A stretch of DNA of 64,000 nucleotides. Origin: Stegostoma tigrinum. Lineage: Eukaryota. The notes under the pieces were generated by a model that did not search any database, was not told the origin of the DNA, and saw only the letters and a list, made by a program, of their open reading frames with translations. Numbering within the stretch: position 1 is the first letter of the stretch; the number at the start of each line of letters is the position of its first letter. Position numbers and translations under genes: made by a program. This document shows, in pieces, positions 24,836 through 63,632 of this stretch. The stretch is from contig NC_081382.1 in assembly GCF_030684315.1 (NCBI RefSeq), positions 42,083,491 through 42,147,490 on the forward strand. The letters run 5' to 3'.

Positions 24836-25102
<267 letters not shown>

Positions 25103-26805: not shown

Positions 26806-26988
<183 letters not shown>

Positions 26989-28321: not shown

Positions 28322-28510
<189 letters not shown>

Positions 28511-30575: not shown

Positions 30576-30731
30576 GTTCCTGATATGGAAGATGAAGAAG
30601 GTGATGGCGAGGAGGAGGATGAAGATGAGGAGGAAGAAGAAGGATTGGAGGATATTGATGAAGAAGGAGATGAGGATGAAGAGGGAGAAGAGGAGGATGA
30701 GGAAGAGGAGGAGGAAGGTGAAGAAGCTGAG
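30576..30731 (+). CDS. SET: SET exon 7 (acidic tail), GC donor
   Basis: GTCAG|GTT..GAG|GCAAGT; [13 protein letters not shown], 156 nt. Confidence 0.9.
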
Positions 30732-35984: not shown

Positions 35985-37190
35985 TCAGAAATCACATGAT
36001 ACCAGGTTACAATCCAACAGGTTTATTTGAAAACGCAAGCTTTCAAAGCCTTGCTCCTCCTCCAGGTGTTAGTGAAGTGGTATCAGACAGAATTTAAGTA
36101 AAAGATCCAAGGGTCACATCACTGATGCAAATGTATTAAACAAACCTGAAGATTTGTATGTAAATCTCAAAATTCTTTTCAAGTCGCTGCCCTGAGAGAA
36201 CTAAATGTTTTATCAATGTAAAGATAAGGTGACATTTTAGGTCAGACAATGCTTGTTAGATTCTAAACAAAGCCTCATACCTATGTTTGGTCTGGAGTCA
36301 GGCTGCTTTTATTGCTAAATTAGGAATTTATAAAAAAAACACATGGACTGACCGACTGTCTATAAATTGTGTGCTTTTTGAACAAAATAGAATCTTTCTG
36401 CAAATACAAATTCACCCCATAGATTTTCATGTGTGCTTGCACAGGGGCGGGAGAGGGCACATGCATATGAAAGTGCAGGTATGAGAGAACGAACAAACGT
36501 GCCTGCATGCATGAGGGCAAGAGAGTGTAAGTACTGTATAGTGTGGTGGGGTCACCTGTAGTGCAACATGAACCCAAGATCCCAGTTGAGGCAATTCTCA
36601 TGGGAACCAAACTTGGCTAATAGCCTCTGCTCGGCAACTCTGCGTTGTTGTGTATCCTCAAGTCCACCTTAGAGGACATTTACCCAAGATCCAAGGCTGT
36701 ATATCCTTGACCACTGAAGCATTCCCCCAGGGGGTGGGGGGAAAACATCCCTGACTGGCAATTGTTACGCAATGTCATTCGTCTGCCGTATTCATAGCAT
36801 CTGCATGGTTTCACCAATATATAATGCCTTGAGATAGACAATGTTGGCCAAGTCACATGAGTATCAGCCATGCACATGGTGGGTGTTGTTCCCACATGCG
36901 ATGGTACAGTTCATGTTGAAGATCTGATGTGTCTTGCAGAGGGTGCCATTACAGGGTTGTATAGTGTTGTGGTTAATGTTGTCTTGAAGACTGGGTGGTT
37001 TGCTGTGAACAGTGGCCTCTTTAAGGTTTGGTGGTTGTTTGAGAGTGAGAAGTGGAGGCATACAGAAGATCTTGGGGAGGTGCTCATCGTCACTGATAAT
37101 GTGTCAAAGTCTGCAAAGAACATAGCATAGATTCTCCGCTCCCAGGAAATACTGGACAAGCACTGAAGTTGCAGCTGCCAAAAGTGGGAG
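35985..37190 (-). mobile_element. Degenerate Penelope-like element (same family as 62085-63632)
   Basis: KQPPNLK..QPC..LCKTHQIF GIY-YIG region; the terminus AATAAACCTGTTGGATTGTAACCTGGT..TGTGATTT resembles the ends of the 62-63 kb copy. Confidence 0.7.
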
Positions 37191-39044: not shown

Positions 39045-40905
39045 GACATAGAAACAAAGAAACCTACAGCACAGGAACAGGCCCTTCGGCCCTCTAAGCC
39101 TGCGCCGATCAAGATCCTCTGTCTAACCTGTCATCTATTTTCTAACAGTCTGTGTCCATTTGCTTCCTGCGCATCCATGTACCTGTCCAAATATATCTTA
39201 AAAGACGCTAACGTGTCTGCGTCTACCACCTCCGCTGGCAACGCGTTCCGGGCACCCACCACCCTCTGTGTAAAGAACTTTCCATGCATATCTCCCTTAA
39301 ACTTTCCTCTTCTCACTTTGAACTCATGACCCCTAGGAATTGAGTCCCCCACTCTGGGAAAAAGCTTCTTGCTATCCACCCTATCTATACTCCTCATGAT
39401 TTTGTAGACCTCAATCAGGTTCTCCCCTCAATCTCCATCTTTCTAATGAAAATAATCCTAATCTATTCGACCTCTCTTCATAGCTAGCACCCTCCATACC
39501 AGGCAACATCCTGGTGAAACCTCCTCTGCACCCTCTCCAAAGCATCCACATCCTTTTGGTAATGTGGCGACCAGAACTGTACACAGTACTCCAAATGTGG
39601 CCGAACCAAAGTCCTATACAACTGCAACATGGCCTGCCAACTCTTGTACTCAATACTCCACCCAATGAAGGAAAGCATGCCATATGCCTTCTTGACCACC
39701 CTATTGACCTGCGTTGTCACCTTCAGGGAACAATGGACCTGAACACCCAGATCTCTCTGTTCATCAATTTTCCCTAGGACTTTTTCATTTACTGTATAGT
39801 TCGCCCTTGAATTTGATCTTCCAAAATGCATCACCTCACATTTGCCCGAATTGAACTCCATCTGCCATTTATCTGCCCAACTCTCCAGTCTATCCATATT
39901 CTGCTGTAATTTCTGACAGTCCCCTTCACTATCAGCTACTCCACCAATTTTAGTGTCATCAGCAAACTTGCTGATCAGACCACCTACACCTTCCTCCAGA
40001 TCATTTACATATATCACAAACAACAGTGGTCCCAGCACAGATCCCTGTAGAACACCACTGGTGACAGGTCTCCAATTTGAGAAACTCCCTTCTACTACTA
40101 CCCTCTGTCTCCTGTTGCCCAGCCAGTTTTTTATCCACCTAGCTAGCATACCCTGGACCCCATGTGACTTCACTTTCTCCATCAGCCTGCCATGGGAAAC
40201 CTTATCAAACACCTTACTGAAGTCCATGTATATGACATCTACAGCCTTTCCCTCATCAATCAACTTTGTCACGTCCTCAAAGAATTCTATGAAGTTGGTA
40301 AGACATGACCTTCCCTGTACAAAACCATGTTGCCTATCACTGATAAGCCCATTTTCTGCCAAATGGGAATAGATCCTATCCCTCAGTATCTTCTCCAGTA
40401 GCTTCCCTACCACTGACGTCAGGCTCACTGGTCGATAATTACCTGGATTATCCTTGCTGCCCTTCTTAAACAAGGGGACAACATTAGCAAGTCTCCAGTC
40501 CTCTGGGACCTTACCCGTGTCTAAGGACACTGCAAAGATATCTGTTAGGGCCCCGGCTGTTTCCTCTCTCGCTTCCCTCAGTAACCCGGGATAGATCCCA
40601 TCCGAACCTGGGGACTTGTCCACCTTAATATCTTTTAGGATACCTAACACTTCCTCCTTCCTTATGTCAACTTGACCTAGATTAAGCAAACATCTATCCC
40701 TAACCTCAACATCCGTCATGTCCCTCTCCTTGGTGAATACCGATGCAAAGTACTCGTTAAGAATGTCACCCATTTTCTCTGACTCAGCGCATAACTTTCC
40801 TTCTTTGTCCTTAAGCGGGCCAATCCTTTCTCTGGTTACCCTCTTGCTCTTTATATATGAATAAAAGGCTTTGGGATTTTCCTTAACCATGTTTGCCAGC
40901 AATAT
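39045..40905 (-). mobile_element. 5'-truncated CR1 LINE with nearly intact reverse transcriptase
   Basis: 472-aa ORF with PGNYRPVSLTS, QHGFV.GRSCLTN, QGSVLGPLLF and KFADDTK; continues through two frameshifts (39411-39683, 39131-39397) to a TTTCTATG-type tail; nested in an older CR1 (38625-39020 and 40930-42240). Confidence 0.92.
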
Positions 40906-41373
40906 CTCTCATGATGAGCTCTTAAATCAGTTTTTTTTGTGAACCTCCTCTGGAACCCTTCTAATTCCTTCCAAAGTTCAGTCTAAAGCTGCACACAGTA
41001 TTCCAAATGTGGCATGACCAGAGCCTTATAGAGCCTCAGCAGTACGTCTGTAGGCGTCTTGAAATGAGTGCTAACATTACACTTACCTTCCTAACTGCCA
41101 ACTGAACCTGGAGGTTAACCTGAAAGGTATCCCAAATTAGGGCTCCTAAGTTCCTTAGTGCTTCAAATTTCCAAACCCTCTCCCTATTTAGAAAATAGTC
41201 TACACTTCTTTTTCTACCAAAGTGTATAACTTCACTTTCTGACATTGTATTCCATCTGCCACTTCTTTGCCCACGCTCCTAGCCTGTCCAACTACTTCTG
41301 CAGCCACCCTGCTTCTTCAACATTACCTGTCCCTCTACCTAACTTTGTCATCTGTAAACTTAGCTTACCCTCA

Positions 41374-41783
41374 TTGATAACAAAGGAGCTGGATGAACAC
41401 AGCAGGCCAAGCAGCATCTTAGGAGCACAAAAGCTGACGGTTCGGGCCTAGACCCTTCATCAGAAAAGGGGGATGGGGAGAGGATTCTGAAATAAATAAG
41501 GGGGGAGGCGGATCGAAGATGGATAGAGAAGAAGATAGGTGGAGAGGGGACAGACAAGTTAAAGGGGCAGGGATGGAGCCTGTAGAGATGAGTATAGGTG
41601 GAGAGGTAGGGAGGGGATAAGTCAGTCAGGGGAGGACGGACAGGTCAAGGGGCCTGGGTGAGGTTAGTAGGCAGGAAATGGAGGCCCGAAACGTCAGCTT
41701 TTGATGCTGCTTGGCCTGCTGTGTTCGTCCAGCTCCACACCTTGTTATCTCGGATTCTCCAGCATCTGCAGTTCCCATTATTT
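41374..41783. mobile_element. Penelope-derived insertion with inverted termini
   Basis: About 70-bp inverted repeat of the family tail; flanked by CTTAGCTTACCCTCA (41359-41373) and CTTAGTTTACCCTCA (41784-41798). Confidence 0.8.
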
Positions 41784-42269
41784 CTTAGTTTACCCTCAAT
41801 TCTTTTGTCCAGATCATTAATGTATCATGTAAATAGCTGTGGTCCCAACACTGATCTCTGCAAAACTCTGCTAATTACAGACTGCCATCCTGAAAAAGAC
41901 CCCTTTATGCCCACTCACTGCCTTCTACCAGTCAATCCTCTATCCTAACCTTGTCTCTAACACCATGGGCTCTTATTTTATTTAGCTATCTCCTTCAGAA
42001 TTCTGGAGTTACTCCATCTGGTCTGGGTGATTTATCCACTTTCAAAACTTCCAGCATCCCCATCACCATCTCCTTAGTGATGGCCACTACACTCACCTGA
42101 CACTCGAAGTTCCGGTATGCTGCTGACGTCTTCCAGTGTGAAGAGTGACGCAAACTACCTATTCAGTTCCTCCATCATTTCTTAGTTCCCCATTACTACC
42201 TCGTCAGCCTCAATTTCCAATAATGCAATGCCCACTCTTGCATCTTTATAAATGTTCTTGAGAATAATG

Positions 42270-43140
42270 GAAGCATGGTTAGTAATTTTGCGGATGACAC
42301 CAAAATTGGTGGTATAGTGGACATGAGGAAGGTTATCTAAGAGTACAACAAGATCTTGATCAACTGGGCCAACAGGCCAAGAAGAGGCAGACTGAGTTCA
42401 GATAAATGTGAGGTAGCACATTTTGGTAAGACAGACATGGGCAGAACTTGCAGACTTGGGAAGCATTGTTGAATAGAGAGACCTACAGGTTCGGGTACAT
42501 ACTTTTTTGAAAGTGGCATTACAGGTAGACAGGGTAGCAAGAAAGAAATGTGGCATGCTTGCCTTCAATGGTTAGAGCATTGAGTATATGAGCTGGGATG
42601 TTGTGTTGCAGTTGTACAGAGTATTGGTGAGGCCACTTTGGGAGTACTGTGTACTGGTCACCTGCAATAGGAAGTATATTATTGAAATGAAAGAGTGCAG
42701 AAAAGACTTACAAGGATGTTATGGGGTCTAGAGATTTCAGTTATAAAGAGAGGCTGGGACTTCTTTCTTTGGAGCATAGGAGTTTGAGGGTTGACTAAGT
42801 TGAGGCGTACAAAATGAGGGGCACAGATAAAGTAAATTACAAAGGTGTTTTTCCCTAGTTCAAAACTCGAGGTCACAATTTTCAGGTGAGAGGAGAACAG
42901 GACCAGAGAGGCAACTTTTTTCACACACAAGGTGGTTCATATGTGGAATGAACTGCCAGAAGAAGTGACAGATGCAAGTACAGTTACAACATTTGAAAGA
43001 CATTTGGACAGGTACACGAATAGGAAAAGTTTAGAGGGATGGGGGCCAAATGCAAGCAGGTGCGACTAATTTAGTTTAGGAAATCTGGTCAGCACGGACA
43101 AGTTGGACCAAAGGATCTGTTTCTGTGCTGTATGATTCAA
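42270..43140 (+). mobile_element. Degenerate CR1 3' portion
   Basis: NFADDTKIGGIVD, LYRVLVRP, WNELPE and FERHLD motifs with indels. Confidence 0.75.
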
Positions 43141-43916
43141 TAAATGTTTTCTTACCTTTTACAGATTAAAAAAACTTGCAATCTTCTTTTATATTACTAG
43201 CTAGTTTAACCTCAGACTTCATCTCCCACTATTGCTTTTCCAGTTTCGTCTGCCAGCTTTTTTAATCTTCTGGCTTCCCATTAGCCTTTACAACTTTTTC
43301 TTTTGTGCTATCCCTGATTTCCCCAAGCTTGTACCCTCCACTTGTACAAACCGAACGAAGAGCCCCATTCACTCCCTCCACCACTGATGTACAGTGGCAA
43401 TGTACACCATTTGCAAGATGCACTGCAGCTCTTCCCAAACTCCTGATCCTCACAACATGGAAGGAATGGCAGTGGACATATAGGAACACCACACCCCCTG
43501 CAAGTTCCCTTCAAAGATTCGGAACAATATTGTCCTTCGTTAACCATTACTGAAGGAACATTCTCCAACTCCCTGCTTAACTGTGGAGGTTTGCACATGG
43601 TAGAAGAGGCTGTCAAGGACAATTATGCCAGTCTCGCCAGATACATGCACACCTTAATAAATTAAGAATAATTACCGTATAGGCAAAGCACACTGTGGAG
43701 GCAATTCGGCCCTTCGTGTCAGCACTAGCCCTCTAAAAAGCAATTCTTCCCCTCTCACTCCCCTAGTTCTTCCTCACAATCTTTAAACTTGCAAATCAAA
43801 ATAGATCAGAACTTAGTTTTATCCAAACGATGCTCACAACTGATCGATTATTTGGAGGTTCGAAAGGATCACCAAAAAGCGGTAAGATGTCGCTAATGAA
43901 ACGAACATTGACAAAC

Positions 43917-44286
43917 CTAAGTGGTTGTGGCACCTGGGACACGTTGCCACTGTCCAAGAGTGTCCAGGGAACCAGGAAAACTGCTCCTCCGGCGGCCAGT
44001 GCCTGTGGACAGCGGCTTTCTTGAAAGTGAGTACCTGGAAGCGAAGTCCCTGGGGGTTCTGGAAAAGTTGCACCGGGACCCTGCGCTCGCCGATCACCGT
44101 GTCGTTACGCTGGGCTAAAGCCAGGGCGCTGGCCACGAACTTGAGGTCCCGACTGGCGGCCACCTCGAAGCCGCACGACCTGCACAGCAAGAGCTCATCT
44201 CGGGAACTTGCCTCCTCCTGGCCGGCATTGTAGCCGCTCACGGCAGGCAGCCACACCAAGAGCAGAGTCCCCAGTATCCGCCACAT
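43917..44286 (-). CDS. Secreted cereblon-like (CULT domain) protein, exon 1
   Basis: ATG 44286 (AGAATG); hydrophobic signal MWRILGTLLLVWLPAVSG; CRSC, NPQG, FSWFPGHSW, CPRC and HLG; donor TTAG|GTTTGT, phase 1. Confidence 0.88.
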
Positions 44287-44714
44287 TCTCCAGGCCGCTT
44301 CTCTCAACGCCTTAAAATAAAACTTCTCCTTTACAATTTTCTTTTGCTCCCCCAGCTCCCCAAACAGTGATTTAAAAATAATTGCGTAAAACCATTCGGC
44401 TACTGAGAGTTTGGCCTGAAGATTCCCCAACGTTATTGCACAGAACTTTGTATCAAAAATGTATCTGTTTTGTTCCTCCCCATTTAACTGTAGCCTTCCC
44501 ACGGCTGATATTTAAATGAACTGCACACGGGAGAGGAAAGATGGATCTCGCTGTATGTAAACATTCTTCAGACTATTTTCACCCCCCTGCTGGCTGGAGG
44601 ATTCCAATTCACTTCATGGGGCTGGGGGAGGACGGATGAAAAGGCGCAAGGAGGCTGTTCGACCAGTCCTTCCTCTGCTGGTTCATTTGACAGAGCCATC
44701 CATTCAGCCTCACT

Positions 44715-45515
44715 CAACAACCCCCAGCACCACTTGCCCCCACACCTCCTCCTTCACCCTCATCCCAGGCTCCAAGATGACTTTCCACATCATGTAGATG
44801 TTCACCTGCACATCTGCCAATGTGGTATACTGCATCCGCTGTATGCGTTGTGGCTTCCTCTACATTGGGGAAACCAAGCGGAGGCTTGGGGACGGCTTTG
44901 CAGAACACCTCCGCTCAGTTCACAAATAACGACTGCACTTCTCTGTGGCAAACCATTTCAACTCCCCCTCCCATTCCTTAGACAACATGTCCATCCTGGG
45001 GCTCCTGCAGTGCCATAATGATGCCACCCACGGGTTGCAGGAACAGCAACTCATATTCCACTTGGGAACCCTGCAGCCCAATGGTATCAATGTGGATTTC
45101 ACCAGCTTCAAAATCTCCCCCTCCCCCACTGCATCCCAAAAGCAGCCCAGCTTGTCCCCACCTCCGTACCTGTTCTTCCCACCTCCTCCCACCTCAAGCT
45201 GCACCTCCATTTCCTACCTACTAACCTCATCCCGCCCCCTTGACCTGTCCATCCTCCCCGGACTGACCTGTCCCCTCCGTACCTCCCCACCTATACTCTC
45301 CTCTCCACCTATCTTCTCCTCTATCCATCTTCGATCCACCTCCCCCCACTCTCCCTATTTACTTCAGAATCCTCTCCCCATCCCCCTTTTCTGATGAAGG
45401 GTCTAGGCCCAAAACGTCAGCTTTTGTGCTCCTCAGATGCTGCTTGGCCTGCTGTGTTCATCCAGCTCCACGCTTTTGTTATCTCGGATTCTCCAGCATC
45501 TGCAGTTCCCATTAC
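44715..45515 (+). mobile_element. Penelope-like element 3' part (GIY-YIG plus terminal repeat)
   Basis: FTCTSANVVYCIRCMRCGFLYIGETKRRLGDGFAEHL; hammerhead core at 45391 with GAAA changed to AAAA. Confidence 0.85.
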
Positions 45516-46335
45516 CTCCTCCAAAGCTCTCCCTTGTTTCCTAGGATCAAGGACAAATCTCTTTGGGGAGCAGAAAAGCAATAGCTTATGCTTCTAAGGC
45601 ATCTTTCCCTGAGGGTTGATGAAATAACTGCACAGAGGCCAGTATCCCATCACCAAGTCACCCTTTATTTACTTGTGCACAGTACACTGGCTGTGACCAG
45701 CCAGCTCACAGTCAGTTCCCTGAACTAGCAGGGGTTTGTGATCTGTTACTACGACAAATTCCCATCCATAAACATACTGGTGGAACCTTCTCACACCAAA
45801 GATGACCAGCAAACCTTCCTTCTCTATATGTGCATATTTGGGTTTGGCATTAGACAAAGACTGGGAAGCATATACTATCGGGCATTCCTCTCCATTAGGC
45901 CACGGGTGAGCCAACGCTATTCCAGCTCCGTTCGTGGAGGCATTGCAAGTCAACACTACTCTCGCTTCGGATCATAATGGGCCAACACGTTAGATGCTGA
46001 TAGCTGCTTTTCACTTCACTAAACACTACTTCTTGGCTACATGGCCAATCCCATGGCTGACCATTTTTTAATAGCAGGTGTAAGGCTGTCAAGACGGGGG
46101 CCAGCTTACATATAAATTTTCTGTCATAATTCACCAACCTGAGGAAAGACCTAAGTTCCAGTAGAAATGCGGGAGCTGGGGCCTCTTTGATCACCCTCAC
46201 TTTATCCTCCAATCAGTGTAACCTGGTTTTGTGGAGTCTGTAACCCAAATAGGTCATCTGGGGTGCCTGAAACACATTTTTCCCTTCTAAGGTGCATACC
46301 TGCCTGGGAGAAATGCTTAAACACTACATCAAATT

Positions 46336-46898
46336 ACCCTCCTCCCTCCGGACCAACCTCAGGGAATCTCTCTCCAACTGCAACTCTCTTGTAATACCTA
46401 TCTTGTTTTCTCTCCATCTTCGGACCGCCTCCCCCACTCTCCCTATTTATTCCGGTTCCCTCTCCCAATCCCCCTCTCTGATGAAGGGTCTAGGCCCGAA
46501 AAGTCAGCTTTTGTGCTTCTGAGATGCTGCTTGGCCTGCTGTGTTCATCCAGCTCCACACTTTGTTATCTTGGATTCTCCAGCATCTGCAGTTCCCATTA
46601 TCACTGATGCAATTTTAACCCCACTGCGAAGCCTCTTCCAGGGATGCCTAACCTGAAGAAGTTACCCTCCTCCCTCCGGACCAACCTCAGGGAATCTCTC
46701 TCCCACTGCAACTCTCTTGTAATACCTATCTTGTTCTCGCTCCATCTTCAGTCTGCCTCCCCTTTTCTCCCTATTTATTCCGGTTCCCTCTCCCCATCCC
46801 CATCTCTGATGAAGGGTCTAGGCCCGAAACGTCAGCTTTTGTGCTTCTGAGATGCTGCTTGGCCTGCTGTGTTCATCCAGCTCCACACTTTGTTATCT
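46336..46898 (+). repeat. Tandem 328-bp Penelope terminal-repeat dimer inside the Gypsy RT
   Basis: TTACCCTCCTCCCTCCGGACCAACC at 46334 and 46662; hammerhead cores at 46478 and 46806; flanked by ATCAAATT (46328, 46899). Confidence 0.85.
46806..46833 (+). ncRNA. Minimal type I hammerhead ribozyme core (intact)
   Basis: CTGATGA-A-GGGT-CTAG-GCCC-GAAAC-GTC: conserved core, stem II, palindromic ACGT stem III and GUC cleavage triplet. Confidence 0.75.
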
Positions 46899-47479
46899 AT
46901 CAAATTCTCCAAGTGCTGTTTATTGGTCTTTTCTGTTATGCATACATCATCCAGATAAATGGCAACCTGGGTAGTTATTGTAAAATGTTCTCCACAGTCC
47001 TTTGGAAAAGGGCACAGCCTGATCGAATCCCAAATGACATTCTTGTATATTGACATAAACTGATATGGGTGTTAATTATAGCGTATCTCTGGTACTCCTC
47101 AGACAGTCACAATTGCATGTAGGCCTGACTCATGTCCAGCTTCGTAAAGAACAGTACACCCCCCGACCCCCACCTATTTTATGTACAAGTCCTCTATGCC
47201 AGGAATTGGGTACTTATGTAGCTGTGAGAATGGTTTACTGTGTGCTTAAAATCCCCACAAAGGTGAAATGAACAACTGGTACTGCCCATTCTGCAAACTG
47301 CATTGGTTTGATGATTCCTTCACTGTCCAGCCTCCTGATTCCTACCTCTACTTTTGCCCGCAAGACAAATGGCACTGAGCAGAGCTTGCAAAATCTCAGA
47401 ATTGCTTCCTAGTCAACATGTAAAGTAGCTTTGGCCTCTTTGATAGTCACCAGACCTTCCTGAAAAACCCCTTGGGCAA

Positions 47480-47750
47480 CTGTTTGTGTGGCGTTTACAC
47501 ATTCTCCTCGTGTCTGCATGGGTTTCCTCTGGGTGCTCCAGTTTCTTCCCACTGTCCAAAGATGTCCAGGATACATGGTGTGGCCATGCTAAATTGCCCA
47601 TAGTGCCCAGGGATGTTTAGGTTAGGTGGGTTAGACGTGGGAGATTAGGGGAATGAGTCTGGGTGAGATGGTCTTCAGAGGGGTGGTGTGGACTTGTTGG
47701 GCGGAATGGCCTGTTTCCACATGTAGGGATTCTATGGTTTTATGATTCTA
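47480..47750 (+). mobile_element. HE1-like V-SINE (5'-truncated) nested in Gypsy
   Basis: V-domain and CCTGTTTCCACA.GTAGGGATTCTA tail. Confidence 0.75.
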
Positions 47751-48097
47751 GAATTTCACTAGGACTTCACTGAGACAGCCATTCTCTAATCAAAAAATGT
47801 TCAACCATTCTAAGTGAATCTTTCTCAACCAGTTCCACCCCAATAGGTTTGGGCCTGAGCCTTTTACACATCAGTGGTAATTGCATCAACTGTTTTTCAG
47901 AGGACACCAGAACCCAAGTCATACCCTTAATCTGCACCAGCTCCCCAGTGTATGTTCTCAGTTTGGCTGAGCACTTGCACAAACTTAAAGGTTGGAGTCC
48001 TGAGTGAAACTTGGTTCTGCAAATACAGATACAGCTGCACTGCTATTGACCTCCATGGGAACTGGGTGACCATTTAACCAAACATTAATTTTAATCA

Positions 48098-49550
48098 ACA
48101 ACATTTACCAACACCTTCCACCCCAACCTCAAATTCACCTGGGCCATCTCCAACATATCCCTCACCTTCCTGGACCTCTCAGTCTCCATCTCAGGTAACC
48201 AGCTAGAAACTGATGTCCATTTCAAGCCCACTGACTCCCACAGCTACCTAGAATACACCTCCTCCCACCCACCGCCCTGCAAAAATTCCATCCCCTATTC
48301 CCAATTCCTCCACTTCCACCACATCTGCTCCCAGGATGAGGCATTCCACTCCCGCACATCTCAGATGTCCATGTTCTTCCAGGACCGCAACTTTCCCCCC
48401 GCAGTGGTCGAGAACGCCCTTGAACACGTCTCCCGCAACACATCCCTCACACCCCGCCCCCGCCACAACCACCCCAGAGGATACCCCTCGTCCTCACATA
48501 CCACCCCACCAACCTCCAGATACAACGTACCATCCTCCGACACTTCTGCCACCTACAATCCAACACCACCACCCAAGCCAGTTTTCCATCCCCACCCTTG
48601 TCTGCCTTCCAGAGAGACCACTCTCTCCGCGACTCCCTTGTCCGCTCCACACTCACCACCACACCCGGCACCTTCCCCTGTGACCGCAGGAAGTGCTACA
48701 CTTGCCCCCACACCTCCTCTGTCACCCCCATCCCAGGCCCCAGGACGACCCTCCACATCAAACAGATGTTCACCTGTACATCTGCCAATGTGGTATACTG
48801 TATCCATTGTACCCGGTGTGGCTTCCTCTACATTGGGGAAACCAAGTGGAGGCTTGGGGACCGCTTTGCAGAACACCTCCGCTTGGTTCGCAACAAACAA
48901 CTGCACCTCCCAATCGTGAACCATTTCAACTCCCCCTCCCATTCCTCAGATGACATGCAGTGCCACAATGATGCCACCCGAAGGTTGCAGGAACAGCAAC
49001 TCATATTCCGCTTGGGAACCCTGCAGCCCAATGGTATCAATGTGGACTTCACAAGCTTCAAAATCTTCCCTTCCACTGCATCCCAAAACCAGCCCAGTTC
49101 TTCCCCTCCGCCCACTGCATCACAAAACCAGCCCAGCTCGTACCCTCCCCCTACTGCATCACAAAACCAGCCCAACCTGTCTCTGCCTCCCTAACCTGTT
49201 CTTCCTCTCACCCATCCCTTCCTCCCACTTCAAGCCGCACCTCCATTTCCTACCTACCACCTCATCCCGCCTCCTTGACCTGTCCATCTTCCCTGGACTG
49301 ACCTATCCCCTCCCTACCTCCCCACCTATACTCTCCTCTCTACCTATCTTGTTCTCTCTCCATCTTTGGTCTGCTTCCTCCTCTCCCTATTTATTCCAGT
49401 TCCCTCTCCCCATCCCCCTCTCCGATGAAGGGTCTAGGCCCAAAACGTCAGCTTTTGTGCTCCTGAGATGCTGCTTGGCCTGCTGTGTTCATCCAGCTCC
49501 ACACTTTGTTATCTTGGATTCTCCAGCATCTGCAGTTCCCATTATCACTG
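48098..49550 (+). mobile_element. Penelope-like retroelement (RT C-terminus, GIY-YIG, terminal repeat) nested in Gypsy
   Basis: NTFHPNLKFT..FLDL..KPTDSHSYLEYTSSHP; VVYCIHCTRCGFLYIGETK..RFAEH; flanked by ATTAATTTTAATCA (48084) and ATTAATTCTAATCA (49551). Confidence 0.9.
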
Positions 49551-52394
49551 ATTAATTCTAATCAGTTCTTATTTGGACGTCGCTAAGCAATTTAATTGTT
49601 CCCACCCACATGTAGGGGGAATTTCCAGGATGTGTACTCTCCAGAATATCAGCCTATGAGTTTTCCCAATGAAGTCAGTCCTTGTAGGAAGCCTTTGTTT
49701 TCTCGAGTCCACATACTTGGCCTTTTAGTCTAGATCCTGAAGAACTTTTTAGTGACTTGTTGTGAGATTCTGCTGTAGGCTGGCCTATGGTGCCTGTGCT
49801 CAGGATATGCCCTACCTGAAGCTCTGCAATTGCCTACACTCAAGTGGTGTTCCCCAAGCTCCGTCAGAGAGATCAGGTGGTCCACTTGTATCAGGATGCT
49901 CTGTAGATCACGTGCTCCACTTGCCACATATTTTAATGACAAAGCCAATTGTATTGCCTGTTTGAAGTCCAGTTGGGCTTCAGCTAGTAGATGGTTCTGC
50001 ACGGTTATGTCATTAATCCCACATACCAAACAGTCTCTCAGCATCTCATTCAGGGTTAACTCAAAACCACATGCCTTTTCTAGTGTCTGAACCTTGCCAA
50101 ACATCCTGATATGATTCCACTAGTTCTCTAACAGCCAAATAAAACCAGTTGGATCTCAGAATTAGAGGATGTTTGCAATAATAACATTCCTTAACCAACT
50201 CTGTTAACTCTTGAAAGGTTTTGGTGTCTGGTACCTCTAGGAATGTTAAGCCCCTTATAACCAAAAATGCTGTAGGCCCACGAGTAGTCAGAAAGATTAC
50301 TCATTGCTTTTCATCTGCCCCAATGTCATTTGCCTTGAAAAGAAAATGCATTCTTTCCACATACCAGGTCTAGTCTTTGACAGCAGGATCAGGTTTCCCA
50401 AATAAAGGCATGGTGCCAGAAATACCTACCCCAACTCCGAGATAACTGTTGCAAGCGAATGTTCTTCAGGCATGTACCATTTTCTCCCGTTGCCACTGAA
50501 ATAACTGCACAGAGGCTGGTATCTTGTCACCAAGTCACTCTTTAGTTACTTGTGAACTGTACGCTGGCTGTGGACTGCCAACTCAGAGTTAGTCCCCTGA
50601 ACAGAGGAGATTCTAAATCTCCTGTTAATATTGGGCAGCCAGGGCTTTCCTGATCAGCCCAGGTTAGTAACCCCAATCAAGCACCTCATAGTCAATGAGG
50701 TCCACCTGGTTCCAGTTATTACAGTTATCATCACTGTTTGGACATAGTCCTAGAGATTACACTGCATGAGCACCTGCCATCACCCCACACCCACACTCAT
50801 TTTCTTGATATGTCCATCTGCACTGGGCTTGTTTTACACTTAGTTTGAAAAAAGCTTGAAGGGTTTTAATTGAAATTTACAACACCCTGAATGGTCTTGA
50901 CAAGGTGGAAAAGATTAATCTTGTGAGGAAAATCCAGGGAAAAGGGTACATGGTTTTAAAATTAGGATTACTCTTTTAGGACAGAAATTAGGAAGCGTTT
51001 TCTCAGAGGGATGGGCAGCATTGGAACTCTTCCCAAAAGCTGGGAGTTGTTCAATATCTTCAAGGCACTTTGATTCTTACCAAAAACTGAAAGAACTGCA
51101 GATGTTGGAAATCAGAAACAAAAACTGAAATTGCTGGGAAAAGTTAGCAGATCTGGCAGCATCTGCAGGGAGAAATCAGAGTTAACATTTCTCTGCTTTA
51201 ATGAAATGTTAACTCTGAGTACTGTTCTGAGGAAGGCTCATTGGACCCGAAACAGTACTCTGATTTCTCTCCCCAGATGTCCTGGACCTGCTGAGCTTTT
51301 CCATGATCTAATTGAATGGTGGGACAGGCTTGAAAGTTGAATGGCCTATTTCTGAGATAACAAGGTGTAGAGCTGGATGAACACAGCAGGCCAACCAGCA
51401 TCAGATGAGCAGGAAAGCTAACGTTTCGGGCCTAGACTCTTCTTCATTTCCGAAAAGTCAGCCTTCCTGCTCCTCTGACACTGCTCGGCCTGCTGTGCTC
51501 ATCCAGCTCTACACCTTGTTATGTCAGATTCTCCAGCATCTGCAGTTCCTACTATCTCTGGCCTATTTCTGTGCCTAATTCATACATTTGCAGCACTCTT
51601 GCAAAAATATGAACAAGATTCTTAATTGTTTGTTTTGTACACTATTTTCTCATCTTCAATATTTTTAGAACTAGTAAACAAATTAAATTAACAGCTTTAA
51701 AACAAATAAACAGCTTTATTATTTTTTGGGTATCTTATAATTTTTTGGAGATAGATCATTAATTTGCATTTAATTTGCTCAGTCTTTGAATATGTTCAAT
51801 GTAAAGATTGATAGATTTCTGATTACTGGTAACAGATGGGAATGAATGGAAACGGCATTGAAATCACCAATCAGCATGGTTGTATTGAATAGTGAGGCAT
51901 GTTCAACAGGTTGAGGACCTCCTCCTGTTCTCATGTTGCTATATTCCTCTGTACTCTGTATATCCCTCTGTATTCTATCAATCCTTTCCTGATATTTAGG
52001 CACACATGTTTCTAGCAATATCCTTATAAATCCTCTCTACACCTTCTTTGGTGCTTCTTTTCTTCATAATATATATATTGCAACATATCTCTCTGCACCT
52101 TGAAAAACCTCTGTGAAATCTGAATCTATAGCTTCACTGCAGGTAGGGATTGACAGTTACACTGTGGTAATAGCACTGGAAAAGTAATCCTTTGCTCTGA
52201 GGATGTGTTCAATCTCACAATGGCACCTGTCGTAATCTATCATTCAATTAATACATTTGATTTAATAGCCAGCCTCAGTAATGGTGACCATAAAAATACC
52301 GTCGAATCTGGTTCATTAATGTCTTTGAGGAAAGGAAATTCGCCCTCTTTACCTTCTCTGGCCTAATATGACACTGCAGAGTAGTTGAATCGTA

Positions 52395-53305
52395 CAGTCA
52401 TAGACCTGTACAGTGTGGAAACAGACCCTTTGGTCCAACTCATCCATGCTGACCAGATATCCTAAATTAATGTAATCCCAGTTGCCACCATTTGGCCCAT
52501 ATCCCTCTAAACCTTTCCTATTCATGTACCCACCCAAATGCCTTTTAAATGTTATAATTGTACCAGACTCCATCACTTCTCCGGGCAGTTTATTCCATAC
52601 ACACACCACCCGCTGTGTGAAAATGTCCCCCCTCAGATCCCTTTTAAATCTTCCCCCTTTCACCTTAAGCTTATGCTTTCTAGTTTTGGACTCCATTATC
52701 CGTGGGAAAATACCTTGGCTGTTCACCTTATCTATGCCCCTCATGATTTTATAATCCTCTATAAGGTCACTCTCAGCCTCTGACACTCCAGGGACTACAG
52801 CCCCAGGCTATTCAGCCTCTCCTTATAGCTCAAACCTTCCAATCCTGGCACCATCCTTGTAAATTTTTTTTGAACCTTTTCAAGTTTCACAACATCCTTC
52901 TTATAGCAGGGAGGCCAGAATTAAATGCAGTATTCCAAAAGCTGCTTAACCAATGTCCTATATAGCCACAACATGACTTCCCAACTTCTTCACTCAATGC
53001 ACTAACCAATAAAGGCAAGCATTCCAAATGCCTTTCCCATTATCCTATCAACCTATGACTCTACTTTCAAGGAACCATGAACCTACACTACAAGGACTCA
53101 GGTCAGCAATGCTCACCAGTGCCTTACCATTAAGTGTACAAGTCCTGCCCTGATTTGCCTTTCCAAAATGCATTTATCTAAGTTAAACTCCATCTGCAAC
53201 TCCTCAGCCCACCTGCCCATCTGATCAAGGTCCCGCTGTACCATGAGGTAACCTTCATGGCTCGCCACTACAACACTAATTTTGGTGTCATCTGCAAATT
53301 TACTA
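52395..53305 (-). mobile_element. CR1 LINE 3' portion
   Basis: KFADDTKI at about 53290; YKIMRGIDKV..FTQRVVCVWNKLP..FKRHL. Confidence 0.8.
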
Positions 53306-53817
53306 AGCTTAATACCTCTCTGGAATGATATAATAAGCCATTCACTTCAAGGGCAATTAATGATTGTTAACAAATACAGGGATTGTCAGTGACCTCTATA
53401 CTCCATGAAAGGATATAGAAAACAGTACTTCCATTTTTGACAAACCTCTAGTTGTGAAATACCCACCAATACCTCTCAAGACTACAGAGGTTTCAAAATT
53501 GTTCAGTGGGTCCATATTTTGAATGCTTGTTCTGAAGAAAGAAGGACAGTGTGTCCCAGCTTAAGATTTCTGAGACCATTGCGCAGTTCAGGAATTGAGG
53601 ATATGTCGAATGCTGCTCACAATTTTATTACTTAATCTTCAATTTCAGTTGATTTTCAATGTAGCTCTTAATTAACTGTCCCTCACTAAAGAGGGGGTAT
53701 TTTTGTCAGGCATTTTGATTCATGATAGTGGAACACTCAGTTTGTGTTTAAGAGATAACAAGATGTAGAGCTGGATGAACACAGCAGGCCAAGCAGCATC
53801 AAAGGACCAGGAAGGCT

Positions 53818-53845
53818 GACGTTTCAGGCCTAGACCCTTCTTCAG
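53818..53845 (-). ncRNA. Minimal hammerhead core, CUGAAGA variant
   Basis: CTGAAGA-AGGGTCTAGGCCT-GAAAC-GTC on the minus strand. Confidence 0.6.
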
Positions 53846-54599
53846 AAAGTTTGTGATAACACGGTGTGAAGCTGGATGAACACAGAGGCCAAGCAGCATC
53901 AGAGGAGCAGGAAAGCTTGATGTTTCGGGTCGGGGCTGTTCTTCAGAAATTAATTCAGAAAGTTTGTGTTTATTTTGGAGAAGTCATTTTGGACTCAGTG
54001 TTAAGTCTGATTCTCTCTTCACATATACTGCCAAACCTGCTGAGTTTCTCCAACAATTTCTGTTCTTATTGCCTAAAGAAAAATACTATTAGAACATAGA
54101 ACAACACAGCGCAGAACAGGCCCTTCGGCCCTCGATGTTGTGCTGACCTGTGAACTAATCTAAGCCCATCCCCCTACACTATCCCATCATCATCATCCAT
54201 ATGCTTATCCAAGAACTGTTTAAATGCCCCTAATGTATTGATCAAGGAAATCTGAGATAAAGACAATACGTTCTAGAAAAACAGAGAATTACAGAAAATC
54301 TAATATGACCAGAACTTCAATTGTGCAAATTGTTCTTATTAACGCAAGACAAAAAGCCTAAACAAATGTATCATGTTTCACAAATATTCAACATGATTAT
54401 TTATTTTTACTCTTATTAGCACAGCATCTCTCATGCTTTCCGTAAGAAAGGATACTTTTGCTGCTGGAGTGGGTAGCCAGGTGACGCCAAATATAAGGCA
54501 GTGATAATGGGAACTGCAGATGTTGGAGAATCCAAGATAACAAAGTGTGAAGCTGGATGAACACAGCAGGCCAAGCAGCATCTCAGGAGCACAAAAGCT

Positions 54600-54627
54600 G
54601 ACGTTTCGGGCCTAGACCCTTCATCAG
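54600..54627 (-). ncRNA. Minimal type I hammerhead core (intact)
   Basis: Reverse complement reads CTGATGAAGGGTCTAGGCCCGAAACGTC. Confidence 0.75.
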
Positions 54628-55056
54628 AGATGGGGTTGCGGAGAGGGAACTGGAATAAATAGGGCGAGAGGGGGAGGCGGACCGAAGATGGAGAGAAAAC
54701 AAGATAGGTGGAGAGGAGAGTATAAGTGGGGAGGGGATAGGTCAGTCCAGGGAAGATGGACAGGTCAAGGAGGTGGGATGAGGTTAGTAGGTAGGAGATG
54801 GAGGTGCGGCTTGGTGTGGGAGGAAGGGATGGGTGAGAGGAAGAACAGGTTAGGGAGGCAGAGACAGGTTGGACTGGTTTTGTGATGCAGTGGGGGGGAG
54901 GGGAAGAACTGGGCTGGGTTGGGGAGCCACCTGAAGGTTGCAGGAACAGCAACTCATATTCCGCTTGGGAACCCTGCAGCCAATGGTATCAAGATAACAA
55001 AGTGTGGAGCTGGATGAACACAGCAGGCCAAGCAGCATCTCAGGAGCACAAAAGCT

Positions 55057-55084
55057 GACGTTTCGGGCCTAGACCCTTCATCAG
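55057..55084 (-). ncRNA. Minimal type I hammerhead core (intact)
   Basis: Reverse complement reads CTGATGAAGGGTCTAGGCCCGAAACGTC. Confidence 0.75.
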
Positions 55085-55339
55085 AGAGGCCTTCATCAGA
55101 GAAACAACCTCAGCCAATGGTATCAATGTGGATTTCACAAGCTTCAAAATCTCGCCTTCCCCACTGCATCCCATCTGCGGTCCGCCTCCCCCCCTATTTA
55201 TTCCAGTTCCCTCTCCCCATCCCCAACTTTGATGAGGGGTCTAGGCCCGAAACGTCAGCTTTTGTGCTCCTGAGATGCTGCTTGGCCTGCTGTGTTCATC
55301 CAGCCTCATAACTTTGTTATCTCAAATATAAAGCAGGTT

Positions 55340-55619: not shown

Positions 55620-57765
55620 GTCAGGAAAAGTTACAAAACAAAATTGCTAGTGAAGCTCAACGAGTCAAAAAAAATCGCGAATCCGGTCCCGATGTTCCCT
55701 CACTCCATAAGAGGGAATCTCCCGGACAGAGTCCTATTCAAGGGCAGTATTTTTTTAAAAATACGCAGCATTCAAATTTCAGTATCAGTCGGTCGTGAGT
55801 TTGAGTCTTCATTCGAGACACATGGTACAACTTTCTAAAACGACGGCCTCTGGCGGAGGGTCAGCGCCGAGGGTGTGGGCACTGTCGAAGCGTGAGGGCT
55901 GAGGGATCGCTGCTCTGTTGGAGGGCCAGCGTTTCTAATACTTCACACCAAAGGTCTGACTGTGGTCATGTGTAAAAGAAATAGCTGTTTGTGCAGAGCA
56001 GAATTTTGGTTTGGTAGAATAGTGACTATGTTATTGAACTATGTTGGTGAGTCATCTTGAGGCCTGAGTTAATGATATACAGACAAGTGTTCAGAGTGCA
56101 CTGTAATAATTTGTGTCTTGGCTAGTGGAAAAAAAATACTGGTAATGTTGACTATGAAGTTACTGGTTGGTATAGAAGATTGATTGTTGATATTGTGTTG
56201 GGAAGGATTCTTGCCATTGCCACTCATCTGTTGTGTATGTGACTCCAGACGCAGGACACAGTAAATATCCTCTTAAACTAGCCAAGCAAGCTGCTTAGTT
56301 GTTTGGGACTGACAAGAAGTGCTGACCTTTAGGTTATGTGTATGACCAGTAAACGCTTTTACTTAACGAATTGTGTGTTTCCTTGTGTGCAGCTAAATAT
56401 CTATCCCTAAACCAATCTTTTCTTTCCAGAAAAATTATTTTGGCATTACCCACATCTCTGCAACTGTTGATAGGATCTTTCAGTTTTCATGCCAGTTTTC
56501 TTTGTTATAACAGTGACTGCAATTCAAACGCAATCTACTGGTTGTTGAATGCTTTCTATCATAAGATAGTGGAAATGGTGATAGAAATACAAGTACCAAA
56601 CTATTTGAAATACCACTATAGAATTGGCAGCACCTGTGAAGAGAGGAACAGAATTAATGTTTCGGATCCATTGACCTTTCTTTAGAAGGAATGCATATAT
56701 TTATTTTACTCACCTGATGCCTTACTAGGCCTGAGGAAATTAAAACTTTCCAAAATGTTTAATAGACCATGGTTGAGATGTTGTGACTGTTTAGGCTAAA
56801 TGTTCAGGGAAGCAAGTGGCTTAAGCCACTTGTTTGTTCCTGTTTTTTTTCTCTGGGGAAAATAGCTCAGATTTTTGTTCTAATTTGAAAGTTAGTCAGA
56901 ATAATCAAATGGGGCAATGCAGAAAGCCAGCAAAAACTGAGCAGTTCCTGAAAGAGATGACTCAAATTATACAGCACTTAATGCAGGCTAATTTTTGGGA
57001 ACAGTTTGTTTTTAATAAAACTTTTGAAGGGAATGTGGTAAGTGTAACCATACCACAACTGAATGATGTAATGAATTGGAATTATCACTAGTAACTTTAG
57101 TGACATAAAACACAGGAAATGGGAATAGGAACATTTTAATATCTTGGCTTGTTCTAACTGAAATAATTTGACCAAGATAACAACTTAAAATCAATTCAGT
57201 TTAGCTATTAAAAGTTAGCTATCAAGCTTGGAGTCTTTTTAAGGCATTTGATCTACAGTAGATTATTGATCCATTTGTTGCCAACTTTGGCTCACTAGCA
57301 AAAACAAGAATTGCTGGACAAACTTCTGTATGGCTCTGAAGAAGGGTCACAGGATGTAAAACATTGACTCTGTATTCTCTCCATAGATGCTGCCAGGCTT
57401 GCTGAGTTTATCTAGCAATTTCTGTTTTAATTCATTTCATATCTCCTGCATTTGTAGTTCTTTGTTTTCCTTGATAATACCCAGTCTATGTTGAAAGGAC
57501 TTAGTGAAAGAACAAACCAGGATATGACCATGTAATCTAGCTAGTCTTTGAAGCAGGGCTAATGTTGTTTAGTTGCATTTTCAGAAGCTTTGTCTTTCTG
57601 ACCAGATGCCATATTAAACCAAGCCTTTTTAGTCAAAAGCTAATAGAATATTTCAAAGTTCAACTGCTATTGTTGTTGTTACAAGTGCTGCAGTAAATCA
57701 CTAAATGTTGCAATTTTATCTGCTGTCATAATGAAAATAAGTAACCATTCATCTAATTTATCTAG

Positions 57766-58066
57766 AGCAATTCCTACCAGCTGTTGATCAACCAGAGGCT
57801 GGACCTGGAAGAGGGAGCTGATCTCTTGGATCCAGATATGCAACAAAAACTTGATGAAGTAAAAGATCTGATTCGCCGCGAAATACAAAAGGAGCTAAAA
57901 ATCAAAGAGGGAACGGAGAACTTGCGCAAAGTGACAACGGATAAGAAAAATCTGGCACATGTGGAAAGCATTTTGAAAACCTCAAATCGCAAATTGAAAC
58001 GTCTGCATTGGGAACTTCAGGAGCTGAATGCACGAATTATGATCACAGACAGGGACAGTCAGGGAG
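57766..58066 (+). CDS. PKN3: PKN family kinase exon 2 (HR1a Rho-binding domain)
   Basis: TCTAG|AGC..GGAG|GTGAGT; QQKLDEVKDLIRREIQKELKIKEGTENLRKVTTDKK..LQELNA. The PKN3 paralog call rests on synteny with SET and WDR34. Confidence 0.85.
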
Positions 58067-58879
58067 GTGAGTGCAACTTGCAGCTGAATGTTGGATAAGA
58101 AGACCTAAGCCTTTATGTGGAGCTAAAACATTAGGTATATGACTCTACAAAAACTGATTTTTTTAAAAAAATTAGAATGTAGCTTAGTATTGAAATGTTC
58201 ATTTTTCAAGCTCCTTTCCACAGTCTTAGTGATAATTTCTTGATTCACCTGTTGATCTTTCTGGGGCTAGGGAAATAAATTTTACTCTTTCACTAGTTCA
58301 CAGGCTAGATTCATCACCCAGTTTGCTACATATATGTGGTAAGTACTTTGAGCTTGGCCAATGAAGATGCCACAGTAAGTGTCTCAGATCCTGAACCAGA
58401 AGCAAAATAAAATTATCAAGAATTCCTGCTCCTGATCACTTTTTGAACCTCTTGCTGAAAAGTGCACACGCAAGCAGGTTTAACTATTTAAGTCCCAAGT
58501 TTGTTTCTCCATGTTAAAAACTGCTGACTTTAGGATCTCACAGCTCACTTGAATAATTGACGGAAGTACCTACAGTATATGAAAATTATACGCAGCAATG
58601 TTGCGAGAGGAAATTTTAAAAAGGACACGGTAAATGAACCAACCGTATCTAATTGTGAAGAAGAACCCAATGACCAGATAGACTTATTGGAGATTAGGTA
58701 ACTGTGATGGTAGAAGAATTGCTTTTGTTGAATTGAGAAATGTTTGCAAACACTTATCTTGTATATGGTTCTTTAAGGTGATTTCATGAAATTGTAGAAT
58801 CCCTACAGTGTGGAAAGAGGCCATTCAGCCCATTGAGTTTGTACCAAACCTCCAAAAAGCATCCCACCTGGCTTTAGTA

Positions 58880-62084: not shown

Positions 62085-63632
62085 CCATCTGAAGTTACAC
62101 GAGACTAGGTTATAGCCCAGCAGGTTTACTTGAAATCTCCAGCTTTTGGATTGTAGTGCCTTTTGTCAGGTGAAATGAGGGAGAGCACATAGACACAGAA
62201 TTTTATAGGCAGAGAGGTCAAAACGCCATACAAATGATGTGAGTAGAGTGTCGCATTGTAAGTCTCGGCAGGTGATCAAAATTGTCAGATGGTGTAACAG
62301 CTGAATAACAAGTGAAGGAATGAGCTAAATCCAATTTAAATGAGGCAGATTTTTTTAACAAAATAAAAATAAGGTGGTGTTGGAGACAAACCGAATGACT
62401 AGAATAACATGATAGGTAGAAGAGTCATATGCTGAGGGTCTAACTATAAGAATGGGATACAATGCTCAACTCGTCGATCACCAGTTCCAACATTCAACAG
62501 TGGCAAAACTGCAGTGACCTCCTCGGAGGATAGACACAGGATACGACCAACAGAGTACCCTTCGTCCAGTACTTCCCCAGAGTAGAGAAGCTACACCATG
62601 CTCTTCGCAGCCTTCAGCATGTCATTGATGAAAAGCATCTTGTGAAGATCTTCCCCACACTTTCACTTCTTGCCTTCAAACAAGCACTAAACCTTAAACA
62701 GACCATCTTTTGCAGCACACTACCCAAACTTCAGGACAACATCAACCATGCAACCCTGCCTTGGCAGCCTCTGCAAGACATGTCAGATCATTTTGTTATG
62801 GATACTACCATCACACATGGGAACACCACCCACCATGTGCACAGCAGATGTTTATGTGACTTGGTCAAAGTTGTCTATCTCAAATGCTGCCAGCAAGGAT
62901 ACCCTGAGGCATGGTATATTAGGAAAACTATGGCAATGGATGAATGGACCCTGCGTAACATGAATGTTCCCTTCCAGTCAGGGAACATTTCAGCCATCAA
63001 AGATGTTCAGCCTCTAATCTTCAGGTAAGCGTCTTCCAAGGCGGTCTTCAAGATGCACAACAATGCAGAATCACCAAGCAGAAACTGATAGCTAAGTTCC
63101 GTACCCATGAAGACATCCTCAGCTACGAACTTGGGTTCCTGTTGAGCTTTATGTAACCTCGTCGTGCTGCTCTGTATTTGTAAAATCTTCCTTGCTGTCC
63201 TGATATGACTCCCCCACCTTGATTAAATTATGATCTCTCTATCTTAAGTAATTCAAGACTGTACAAACTAATTATTACTTTGGTTAGACCCTCAGCATGT
63301 GACTGTTGTACCTATCATCATGTTATTCCAGCCACTGGTTTGTCTCCAGTACCACCTTATTCTTAATTTTTGTAATTATCTCCCGACCTCATTTAATCAG
63401 ATTATACGTCATTCCTTCACTTGTTATTCAGCTGTTGACACTACTCATACTGTCTGATGGTCTTGATCACCTGCAGAGATTTATTTGACAGTCCAGCCAC
63501 ACCATTTGTGTGATCTTTTGATCTCTCTGCCTATAAATTCTGTGCCTGCCTGCTTCTCTCTCTCTACACCAAAGAGCTATGCTTCAAAAGCTTGTGATTT
63601 CAAATAAACCTGGTGTTGTGTGACTTCTGACA
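62085..63632 (+). mobile_element. Penelope-like element with about 350-bp terminal inverted repeats, inserted in a CR1 relic
   Basis: RVPFVQYFP, LLAFKQALNLKQ and VVYLKCCQQG..AWYI GIY-YIG relic; 62090-62443 is the diverged reverse complement of 63281-63630. Confidence 0.75.

Follow-up and report, generated by a model that had tools for sequence, protein, structure and literature searches.

A stretch of 64,000 nucleotides of Stegostoma tigrinum (assembly GCF_030684315.1, contig NC_081382.1, positions 42,083,491 to 42,147,490 of the forward strand; hereafter the window) carries six insertion loci that together hold nine hammerhead motifs (Table 1), located between a SET/NAP-like gene with exons at ~21.6-30.8 kb and a PKN-like gene that begins at ~55.6 kb. 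Very probably these motifs are minimal type I hammerheads in the pseudo-long terminal repeat (pseudo-LTR) of a very abundant Neptune-type Penelope-like element (PLE) of cartilaginous fish, left behind as 5'-truncated, inverted and tandem insertions, and we include in this assessment the dimer- and protein-dependent mechanism described below. A search with the 28-nt motif string, allowing up to three mismatches, recovered all nine matches of the original prediction with the coordinates, strands and mismatch counts given there: three are perfect, three carry one and three carry two substitutions, while 100 dinucleotide shuffles put the chance expectation at 0.00. Nineteen alignments to the repeat lie within the window, from 11299 to 57460, and the list of nine is thus incomplete; the inverted pair at 51355-51560, for instance, is absent from it.

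Table 1. Insertions of the element and their hammerhead motifs, in positions of the window
Feature	Position	Strand	Remarks
Perfect minimal type I hammerhead motif	46806..46833	+	Motif search; consensus fit
Hammerhead motif, C15.2>A	46478..46505	+	328 nt upstream of 46806, same strand
1.73 copies of 328-bp unit, retrozyme-like non-autonomous derivative	46331..46898	+	
Putative first codons of the PLE open reading frame (MPNLKK...)	46644..46720	+	138 nt past cleavage site; by position only
5'-truncated Neptune-type PLE	48090..49553	+	Hammerhead 49422-49449 (U4>C, G12>A); ~101-nt tail
5'-truncated copy: C-terminal half of endonuclease, 3' untranslated region (UTR)	44731..45514	+	Hammerhead 45391-45418 (G12>A); 95-nt tail
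Head-to-head inverted pair	41376..41781		Minus copy 41376-41684 with hammerhead 41436-41463 (A15.1>C); plus copy 41682-41781, beginning inside stem II
3' UTR with perfect hammerhead	54499..54920	-	Hammerhead 54600-54627; 101-nt tail
Mini-copy	54990..55087	-	Starts 3 nt upstream of perfect hammerhead 55057-55084
Inverted partner with short 3' UTR	55171..55322	+	Hammerhead 55229-55256 (C3>U, unpaired A>G); 65-nt tail
Subfamily-B mini-copy, head-to-tail dimer	53753..53950	-	Period 101; hammerhead 53818-53845, decayed one near 53920-53946
Subfamily-B mini-copies, head-to-head inverted pair	51355..51560		Cores of both damaged or truncated

The copies fall into three types: a subfamily A, to which eight of the nine motifs belong, a more decayed subfamily B that includes 53818 (both labels are coined here), and a more distant third type. 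Against the majority sequence of the other eight, the 53818 copy has 8 differences in 76 positions, and its tail is of the subfamily-B type. The third type is a family of short repeats headed by a hammerhead, found at 51085-51320 (an inverted pair), 53999-54070, 57333-57460 and 20345-20418. Fragments of the endonuclease end lie beside the 55229 copy (54926-54992 and 55114-55173). Elsewhere, a minimal-hammerhead-like motif with a 6-bp stem II occurs in an unrelated repeat family (2383-2416, plus strand), where palindrome and helix I look decayed.

In the unsubstituted motif the segment from C3 to A9, CUGAUGA, is followed by one unpaired base, A, and by a stem II of GGGU/GCCC (three G-C pairs and one U-G) closed by the loop CUAG; after it come GAAA and the palindrome ACGU. 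Cleavage is predicted after C17, which is nucleotide 46833 in copy 46806, and the 3' product would begin at 46834 (predicted cut 46833|46834). The 4-bp stem II and the palindromic stem III had been correctly read from the sequence, as had the roughly two base pairs of proximal stem I (CT/AG): helix I consists of CU/AG, or UU/AG in copies 41436 and 45391. The palindrome at 15.2-16.2, which has no loop 3, is ACGU in seven of the nine copies, ACCGU at 41436 and AAGU at 46478. A full catalytic core, which had been claimed for the motif, is present in five of the nine (46806, 54600, 55057, 46478 and 53818), but the other four (41436, 45391, 49422 and 55229) have core bases changed. Among the five, 46478 has its stem III palindrome broken, and 53818 carries an A at N7 and a C11.1>U change in stem II. 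Covariance models, proposed as a check, gave no support, as an Rfam scan of the window returned no hammerhead among five matches at E<=1; the hammerhead models of Rfam expect a closed stem III. The motif does fit the consensus of metazoan minimal hammerhead ribozymes, 'NNN CUGANGAH G...C GAAAN palind NUH NNN', as given in the supplement of PMC4209133, including the unpaired base between A9 and G10.1, the G10.1-C11.1 pair, helix II and the loop-less palindrome, and its assignment to the minimal type I class is upheld. For a helix I of 2 bp the same paper provides precedents in Drosophila virilis, Culex and Oikopleura.

What carries the motif is best seen at 48090-49553, where a reverse transcriptase (RT) thumb (48095-48460), a frameshift, a CX4CxxC linker, a GIY-YIG endonuclease reaching to ~49065 and a 3' UTR follow each other. 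The hammerhead at 49422 lies on the same strand as the GIY-YIG domain (48424-49065) and 357 nt further downstream, and it is because of this position, after the endonuclease and past the 3' UTR, that we place it in the pseudo-LTR. A second copy has the same order, with the endonuclease at 44731-45094 and its hammerhead downstream. In translation, the CX4CxxC linker is found at residues 86-94 (CDRRKCYTC), followed by CTRC..YIG, AEH and NHF, so that both a linker of the CX2-5CxxC pattern and the CCHH residues are present; the arrangement of linker and CxxC-YIG recurs in 112 of the 150 best homologs. A phmmer search found 6,052 relatives at E<=0.001, the best full-length homolog aligns over thumb and endonuclease (E 3.9e-73), and the named among the closest homologs come from whale shark, stingray and skate (six of ten relatives looked up carry names). 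Neptune and Nematis are defined by the CX2-5CxxC linker (PMC8557442), and Neptune and Poseidon are the PLE groups widespread in the vertebrates surveyed in a retrozyme preprint (bioRxiv 10.64898/2026.07.22.740005). On account of this linker and these vertebrate groups, the carrier would be a Neptune PLE, by motif and host group. No intact open reading frame of the element and no full RT occur within the window, and tblastn with 15 full-length homologs gave no match to the putative start region at 46644-46720. Decayed endonuclease-region fragments of other Neptune-like PLE families are present at 36603-37103 (minus strand; tblastn E 3e-13) and 62534-63200 (plus strand; by eye), and no hammerhead was seen just downstream of either.

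Further information on the structure comes from distant relatives in metagenome contigs, which were scanned with a pattern fixing the core and three stem II pairs while leaving H17 and helix I free. This gave 48 matches at 46 loci; the exact motif was not found in these contigs, nor the degenerate motif in viral contigs. Among 26 distinct contexts, at least three helix I pairs are possible in 19 (chance 5.6% per site), two pairs in 2, and one or none in 5, and H17 is C or U in 25. Sixteen of the 46 loci match the window endonuclease by tblastn at ~35-56% identity, and in four (L010, L022, L026 and L041) the motif follows the end of the endonuclease after ~105 nt, with both on one strand. In an alignment of 13 hand-picked rows, four from the window and nine from metagenome loci, all three pairs of helix I change on both sides, for example U-A versus A-U at 2.1:1.1, with a covariation score that none of 500 shuffles reached and that was lower in slid controls. 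Stem II is 98% paired in these rows, three of its four pairs being fixed by the pattern in the nine metagenome rows. Carriage by a Penelope element, as originally predicted, is thus borne out by the endonuclease upstream on the same strand, the pseudo-LTR position and the helix I covariation in distant relatives. The further claim that the family is young holds in a relative sense only: subfamily-A copies lie 1.8% from their majority over 76 nt, but no reading frame is intact and two tandem units differ at 13 of 240 overlapping nucleotides. Identity of the 3' UTR among copies is 74-91%, gaps included.

Several points weigh against this reading and should be considered together. The 26 contexts amount to about four related families plus strays; the alignment rows, picked by hand, likewise represent some four families, so that the covariation comes down to a handful of independent events, and kinship among sequences can beat a shuffle control. 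With 2 bp, helix I ranks among the shortest known, and its pairs (U-A, C-G or U-G) are weak. The Pfam match to GIY-YIG is weak (16.8 bits against a cutoff of 22.6, E 0.008), and the Neptune assignment depends on motif and host group rather than on a tree, with the RT thumb as the only part of the RT present and Nematis sharing the linker. Dimers of minimal hammerheads cleave weakly (PMC4209133), and eight of nine Xenopus retrozyme dimers showed no cleavage (bioRxiv 10.64898/2026.07.22.740005). Lastly, the core is not kept better than its flanks, one of the outcomes named at the outset as refuting: the eight subfamily-A copies have 5 substitutions in 96 at 12 core positions versus 4 in 384 in the first 48 tail bases (Fisher P 0.019), two of the five core changes being CpG transitions. 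Two runs of one sample, X10 and X11, in which 132,610 and 167,298 contig records matched the family, gave transitions of 14-17% at two core CpGs versus 12-17% at one flanking CpG, ratios derived by hand from the table rows listed, where more subfamilies cover the core than the flank. A comparison across inserted copies is, however, the wrong test for ribozyme function, because inserted copies decay neutrally while selection acts on the source lineages; the informative conservation is that between lineages.

So would such a ribozyme cleave? Folding energies, which ignore tertiary structure, Mg2+ and proteins, predict a rod for the naked motif, with CUGAUG paired to CGUCAG (-11.4 kcal/mol versus -3.6 for helices I and II), with a probability for helix I of at most ~0.01 in all nine copies. 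For two copies, the favoured prediction is a full duplex, made possible by the self-complementarity of stem-loop II (-38.0 versus -13.3 for stem II plus a swapped stem III), and in a 46460-46900 transcript the active cross-pairing is predicted to have negligible weight. The tail has no significant structure (z 0.89 and 0.35). We rejected a lineage-specific origin of the inactive rod, since a similar misfold is predicted for most relatives. The predicted misfold agrees with the weak minimal hammerhead dimers and inactive Xenopus dimers mentioned above, and with the ribozyme of the anole Poseidon element PAc, for which cleavage was seen only with protein (PMC11167929). As such, the RNA is predicted to form an inactive rod, and cleavage probably needs both a dimer and a helper. 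Stem II with its loop (46814-46825) is itself self-complementary, and two copies could make a 12-bp duplex competing with the active dimer; the perfect palindrome at stem-loop II is missing from most metagenome relatives.

The ends of the copies bear on which RNA was inserted. Counted from C3, with the cleavage site at +28, nine of the 19 alignments start between -4 and +5 and seven reach into the 3' UTR; two, each the inner member of an inverted pair, start inside the core (+14 and +18), a faint fragment of the third family starts at +40, and none of the 19 starts at the cleavage site. The 3' ends are fixed at ~64-65 and ~95-101 nt past the cleavage site. Six upstream flanks that were tested have no homology to each other or to the subfamily-A 3' UTR. 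Among the contig rows listed, which do not prove an absence at the cut site, X11 has 481 loose ends just before 46477, the base preceding C3, and behind 46570, the tail end 65 nt past the cut, there are 2,473 (X10) and 3,313 (X11); 10 and 41 contigs, respectively, contain a joint that leads from 46570 to 46474 or 46477, further upstream. Contig depth also rises at the 5' edge of the ribozyme and not at the cleavage site, but depth cannot rank parts and is not counted as evidence. A loose end at 46506 in X4 (10 contigs, median 12 letters) was considered as a possible start of copies at the cleavage site but fits a diverged ribozyme that extends further upstream. We also rejected splicing as the origin of the 5' boundary shared by the copies, as no AG precedes it. 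Both X10 and X11 contain many tail-to-tail joints of opposite strands that link 46567-46572 with 46602-46614, hence one tail end with the other, which suggests insertion into the element's own tail; an alignment artefact could also produce them.

Because copies start near the first base of the ribozyme and none at the cleavage site, the inserted templates would have been uncleaved RNA. For PAc, unprocessed RNA is the dominant insertion substrate and initiation occurs at two internal sites in the tail (PMC11167929), and inverted 5'-truncated partners have been described for PLEs (PMC8557442); by analogy, the copy ends seen here match two internal initiation sites and an uncleaved template. The mechanism that we propose for the source element is that a single copy, lacking a loop, could not close stem III, and that two copies would swap the ACGU palindrome. 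Naked RNA would favour the inactive rod, making cleavage after GUC slow, and cleavage would probably need the element's own protein, as in the anole Poseidon element. Insertion would then use uncleaved RNA, with reverse transcription starting inside the tail and running through the ribozyme. The copies at this locus would mostly be inert relics, and dimerisation in cis, upon transcription, would be open only to the same-strand pairs 55057/54600 and 46478/46806. Of the two, the former is the more promising natural source of such a dimer, with two perfect motifs on one strand 457 nt apart. For all motifs of the window, cleavage activity is a prediction from sequence.

The shared 5' stop may be caused by a transcription start at the first base of the ribozyme; in D. 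virilis, the pseudo-LTR of Penelope contains an internal promoter (PMC2377424). Alternatively, the stop could stem from SINE-like (short interspersed nuclear element) master copies or from joining at the pyrimidine run upstream. Tentatively, the mini-copies of ~95 and ~130 nt, consisting of ribozyme and tail, could be run-off complementary DNAs, for which RT starts in the tail of the 5' pseudo-LTR and leaves the RNA at its 5' end, 1-4 nt upstream of C3; re-priming would give tandems of 94-101 nt, a seed of dimer-competent retrozymes, and the 328-bp unit would stem from a circular or multimeric template. If so, the fixed 5' junction would be a genomic fossil map of the transcription start, the shrinkage of helix I to 2 bp would be explained, and the very large copy number would show that an auto-inhibited ribozyme stays uncleaved within the inserting particle.

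The 328-bp unit contains the last 85 nt of the 3' UTR, the hammerhead, the tail and the putative reading-frame start, and the junction between that start and the 3' UTR occurs twice in 46331-46898 (46392|46393 and 46720|46721), together with two motifs, one of which has a broken palindrome. TRF did not report this tandem. The insertion begins in the middle of a unit and stops where tails usually end, which implies a template that was multimeric or circular. A simple tandem duplication of 46331-46570 was rejected, because the spacer 46571-46658 is element sequence and not flank, and a joint from 46667 to 46340 was rejected as support for a 328-bp family, as it shows only the putative reading-frame start continuing. 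It is tempting to regard the short copies and the 328-bp unit as retrozymes that depend on an autonomous PLE and spread via circular RNAs made by an essential hammerhead. In favor of this are the more-than-unit insertion with its repeated internal junction, the 101-bp dimer at 53753-53950, the head-to-tail joints in X10 and X11 (here from 46570 to 46474/46477), and the size of vertebrate retrozymes, 51-972 bp with a mean of 363 bp in one chondrichthyan (bioRxiv 10.64898/2026.07.22.740005). However, template re-priming or the partial tandems of PLEs yield identical structures without a circle, most short copies are monomers, and the expressed retrozymes described in PMC7229834 carry canonical hammerheads. 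Furthermore, none of 32 listed X10/X11 contig pieces spans the 46392|46393 junction, and a dispersed 328-bp family is not supported. We consider this explanation unlikely.

Doubtful to a similar degree is the view that the motif is derived from a hammerhead but no longer cleaves here, being kept for a role in the internal promoter, at the 5' end or in protein binding of the element's RNA. A helix I of just 2 bp, a prediction dominated by the inactive rod, and the lack of copies starting at the cleavage site would all suit it, as would the catalytic mutants of PAc, which insert normally (PMC11167929), and the Naiad elements, which thrive without canonical hammerheads (PMC8557442). Yet subfamilies A and B retain all catalytic positions, H17 and the pairing of helix I, as do relatives whose endonucleases are only ~40% identical, and a G5-C17 misfold similar to that predicted here is expected in most relatives, so that a loss specific to this lineage is not indicated. 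Highly improbable, finally, is a co-option of the cluster to process or limit divergent transcripts of the PKN-like promoter. Two perfect same-strand motifs do lie 0.3-0.8 kb upstream of this promoter in antisense orientation, and both 55057 and 54600 equal the majority sequence over 76 nt, but the family is extremely abundant, as the contig records counted above attest, and a mean divergence of 1.8% makes identity over 76 nt common by chance. The preferred reading thus remains that of minimal hammerheads in the pseudo-LTR of a Neptune-type PLE.

As for the surroundings, we take the flanking genes to be SET-like and PKN-like from their translations; Pfam gives NAP and HR1 domains. The SET-like gene (21600-30800, plus strand) has NAP matches and an acidic tail at 30609, and the PKN-like gene has a GC-rich first exon near 55.4-55.6 kb and an HR1-domain exon at 57766-58095. 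A GC-rich bidirectional promoter lies between the SET-like gene and a first exon at 20494-21100 (minus strand), which is presumably DYNC2I2/WDR34-like by eye and has no Pfam match; the order of WDR34-like, SET-like and PKN-like genes recalls, we assume, the human WDR34-SET-PKN3. A small-gene exon at 43834-44290 (minus strand) begins much like a signal peptide and encodes a zinc domain of CULT/Yippee-like type (CxxC...FSWFPG..W...CxxC), for which Pfam Yippee-Mis18 reaches only E 0.15, and its product presumably resembles secreted cereblon-like proteins. Fragments of long interspersed nuclear elements of the CR1 type are found at 39484-40908 (minus strand; a 474-aa open frame, RVT_1 E 1.8e-34), 42250-43130 (plus) and 52400-53320 (minus), the latter two by eye, and 47480-47750 (plus) has what we take to be an HE1/V-SINE-type look with a CR1-like tail. 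All five subfamily-A loci lie within 13.3 kb (P ~0.008 under random placement, with the interval chosen post hoc), as do 7 of all 12 loci (P ~0.10), a count that leaves out two faint third-family fragments near 20.4 and 54.0 kb. The enrichment is modest; loss from genic DNA and insertion beside earlier copies (PMC6765202) would account for it.

The hammerhead class of PLEs has been known since 2014, and the class, the dimer model and the link to PLEs are already published (PMC4209133; PMC6765202). We found no paper describing a shark family, which supplementary lists of the retrozyme preprint or of PMC4209133 (file 1) may contain; the searched part of the latter supplement, to which file 1 does not belong, has no shark, Callorhinchus, Leucoraja or Squalus entry. 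With its two natural same-strand pairs and very short helix I, the locus is suited to a direct test of activity. In a second PLE clade, moreover, the copy ends follow a pattern in line with the sole biochemical study, in which the template is uncleaved and initiation internal.

Compared with known systems, the motif shares with the minimal hammerheads of Cervera and de la Pena (2014, PMC4209133) the type I topology, CUGANGAH, the unpaired base before G10.1-C11.1, the palindromic 15.2-16.2 without loop 3, the pseudo-LTR location, and an occurrence in thousands of single or inverted copies from truncated elements; its helix II of 4 bp and helix I of 2 bp are both at the short end, and its loop II (CUAG) is palindromic. 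With Neptune as described by Craig et al. (2021, PMC8557442) the element has in common the C-terminal GIY-YIG with CCHH-type residues, the CX2-5CxxC linker, 5' truncation, partial tandems and adjacent inverted copies, as well as an optional tail of 30-40 nt, the ends here being at ~+65 and +95-101. Unlike that reference, the window element lacks a full RT and is placed by motif and not by phylogeny, the linker being found in Nematis too. Non-LTR retrozymes (PMC7229834; bioRxiv 10.64898/2026.07.22.740005) likewise consist of short non-coding tandem pseudo-LTR units with a hammerhead in each, here of 328 bp and 101 bp, but the present tandems comprise fewer than two full units, contain a minimal instead of a canonical ribozyme and are known from DNA alone. 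Finally, PAc of Anolis carolinensis (Frangieh et al. 2024, PMC11167929) shares internal initiation at two tail sites, an uncleaved template and inverted products consistent with priming on both strands, although it belongs to another clade and its reading frame starts at stem II, whereas the putative start of the shark element lies downstream of the cleavage site.

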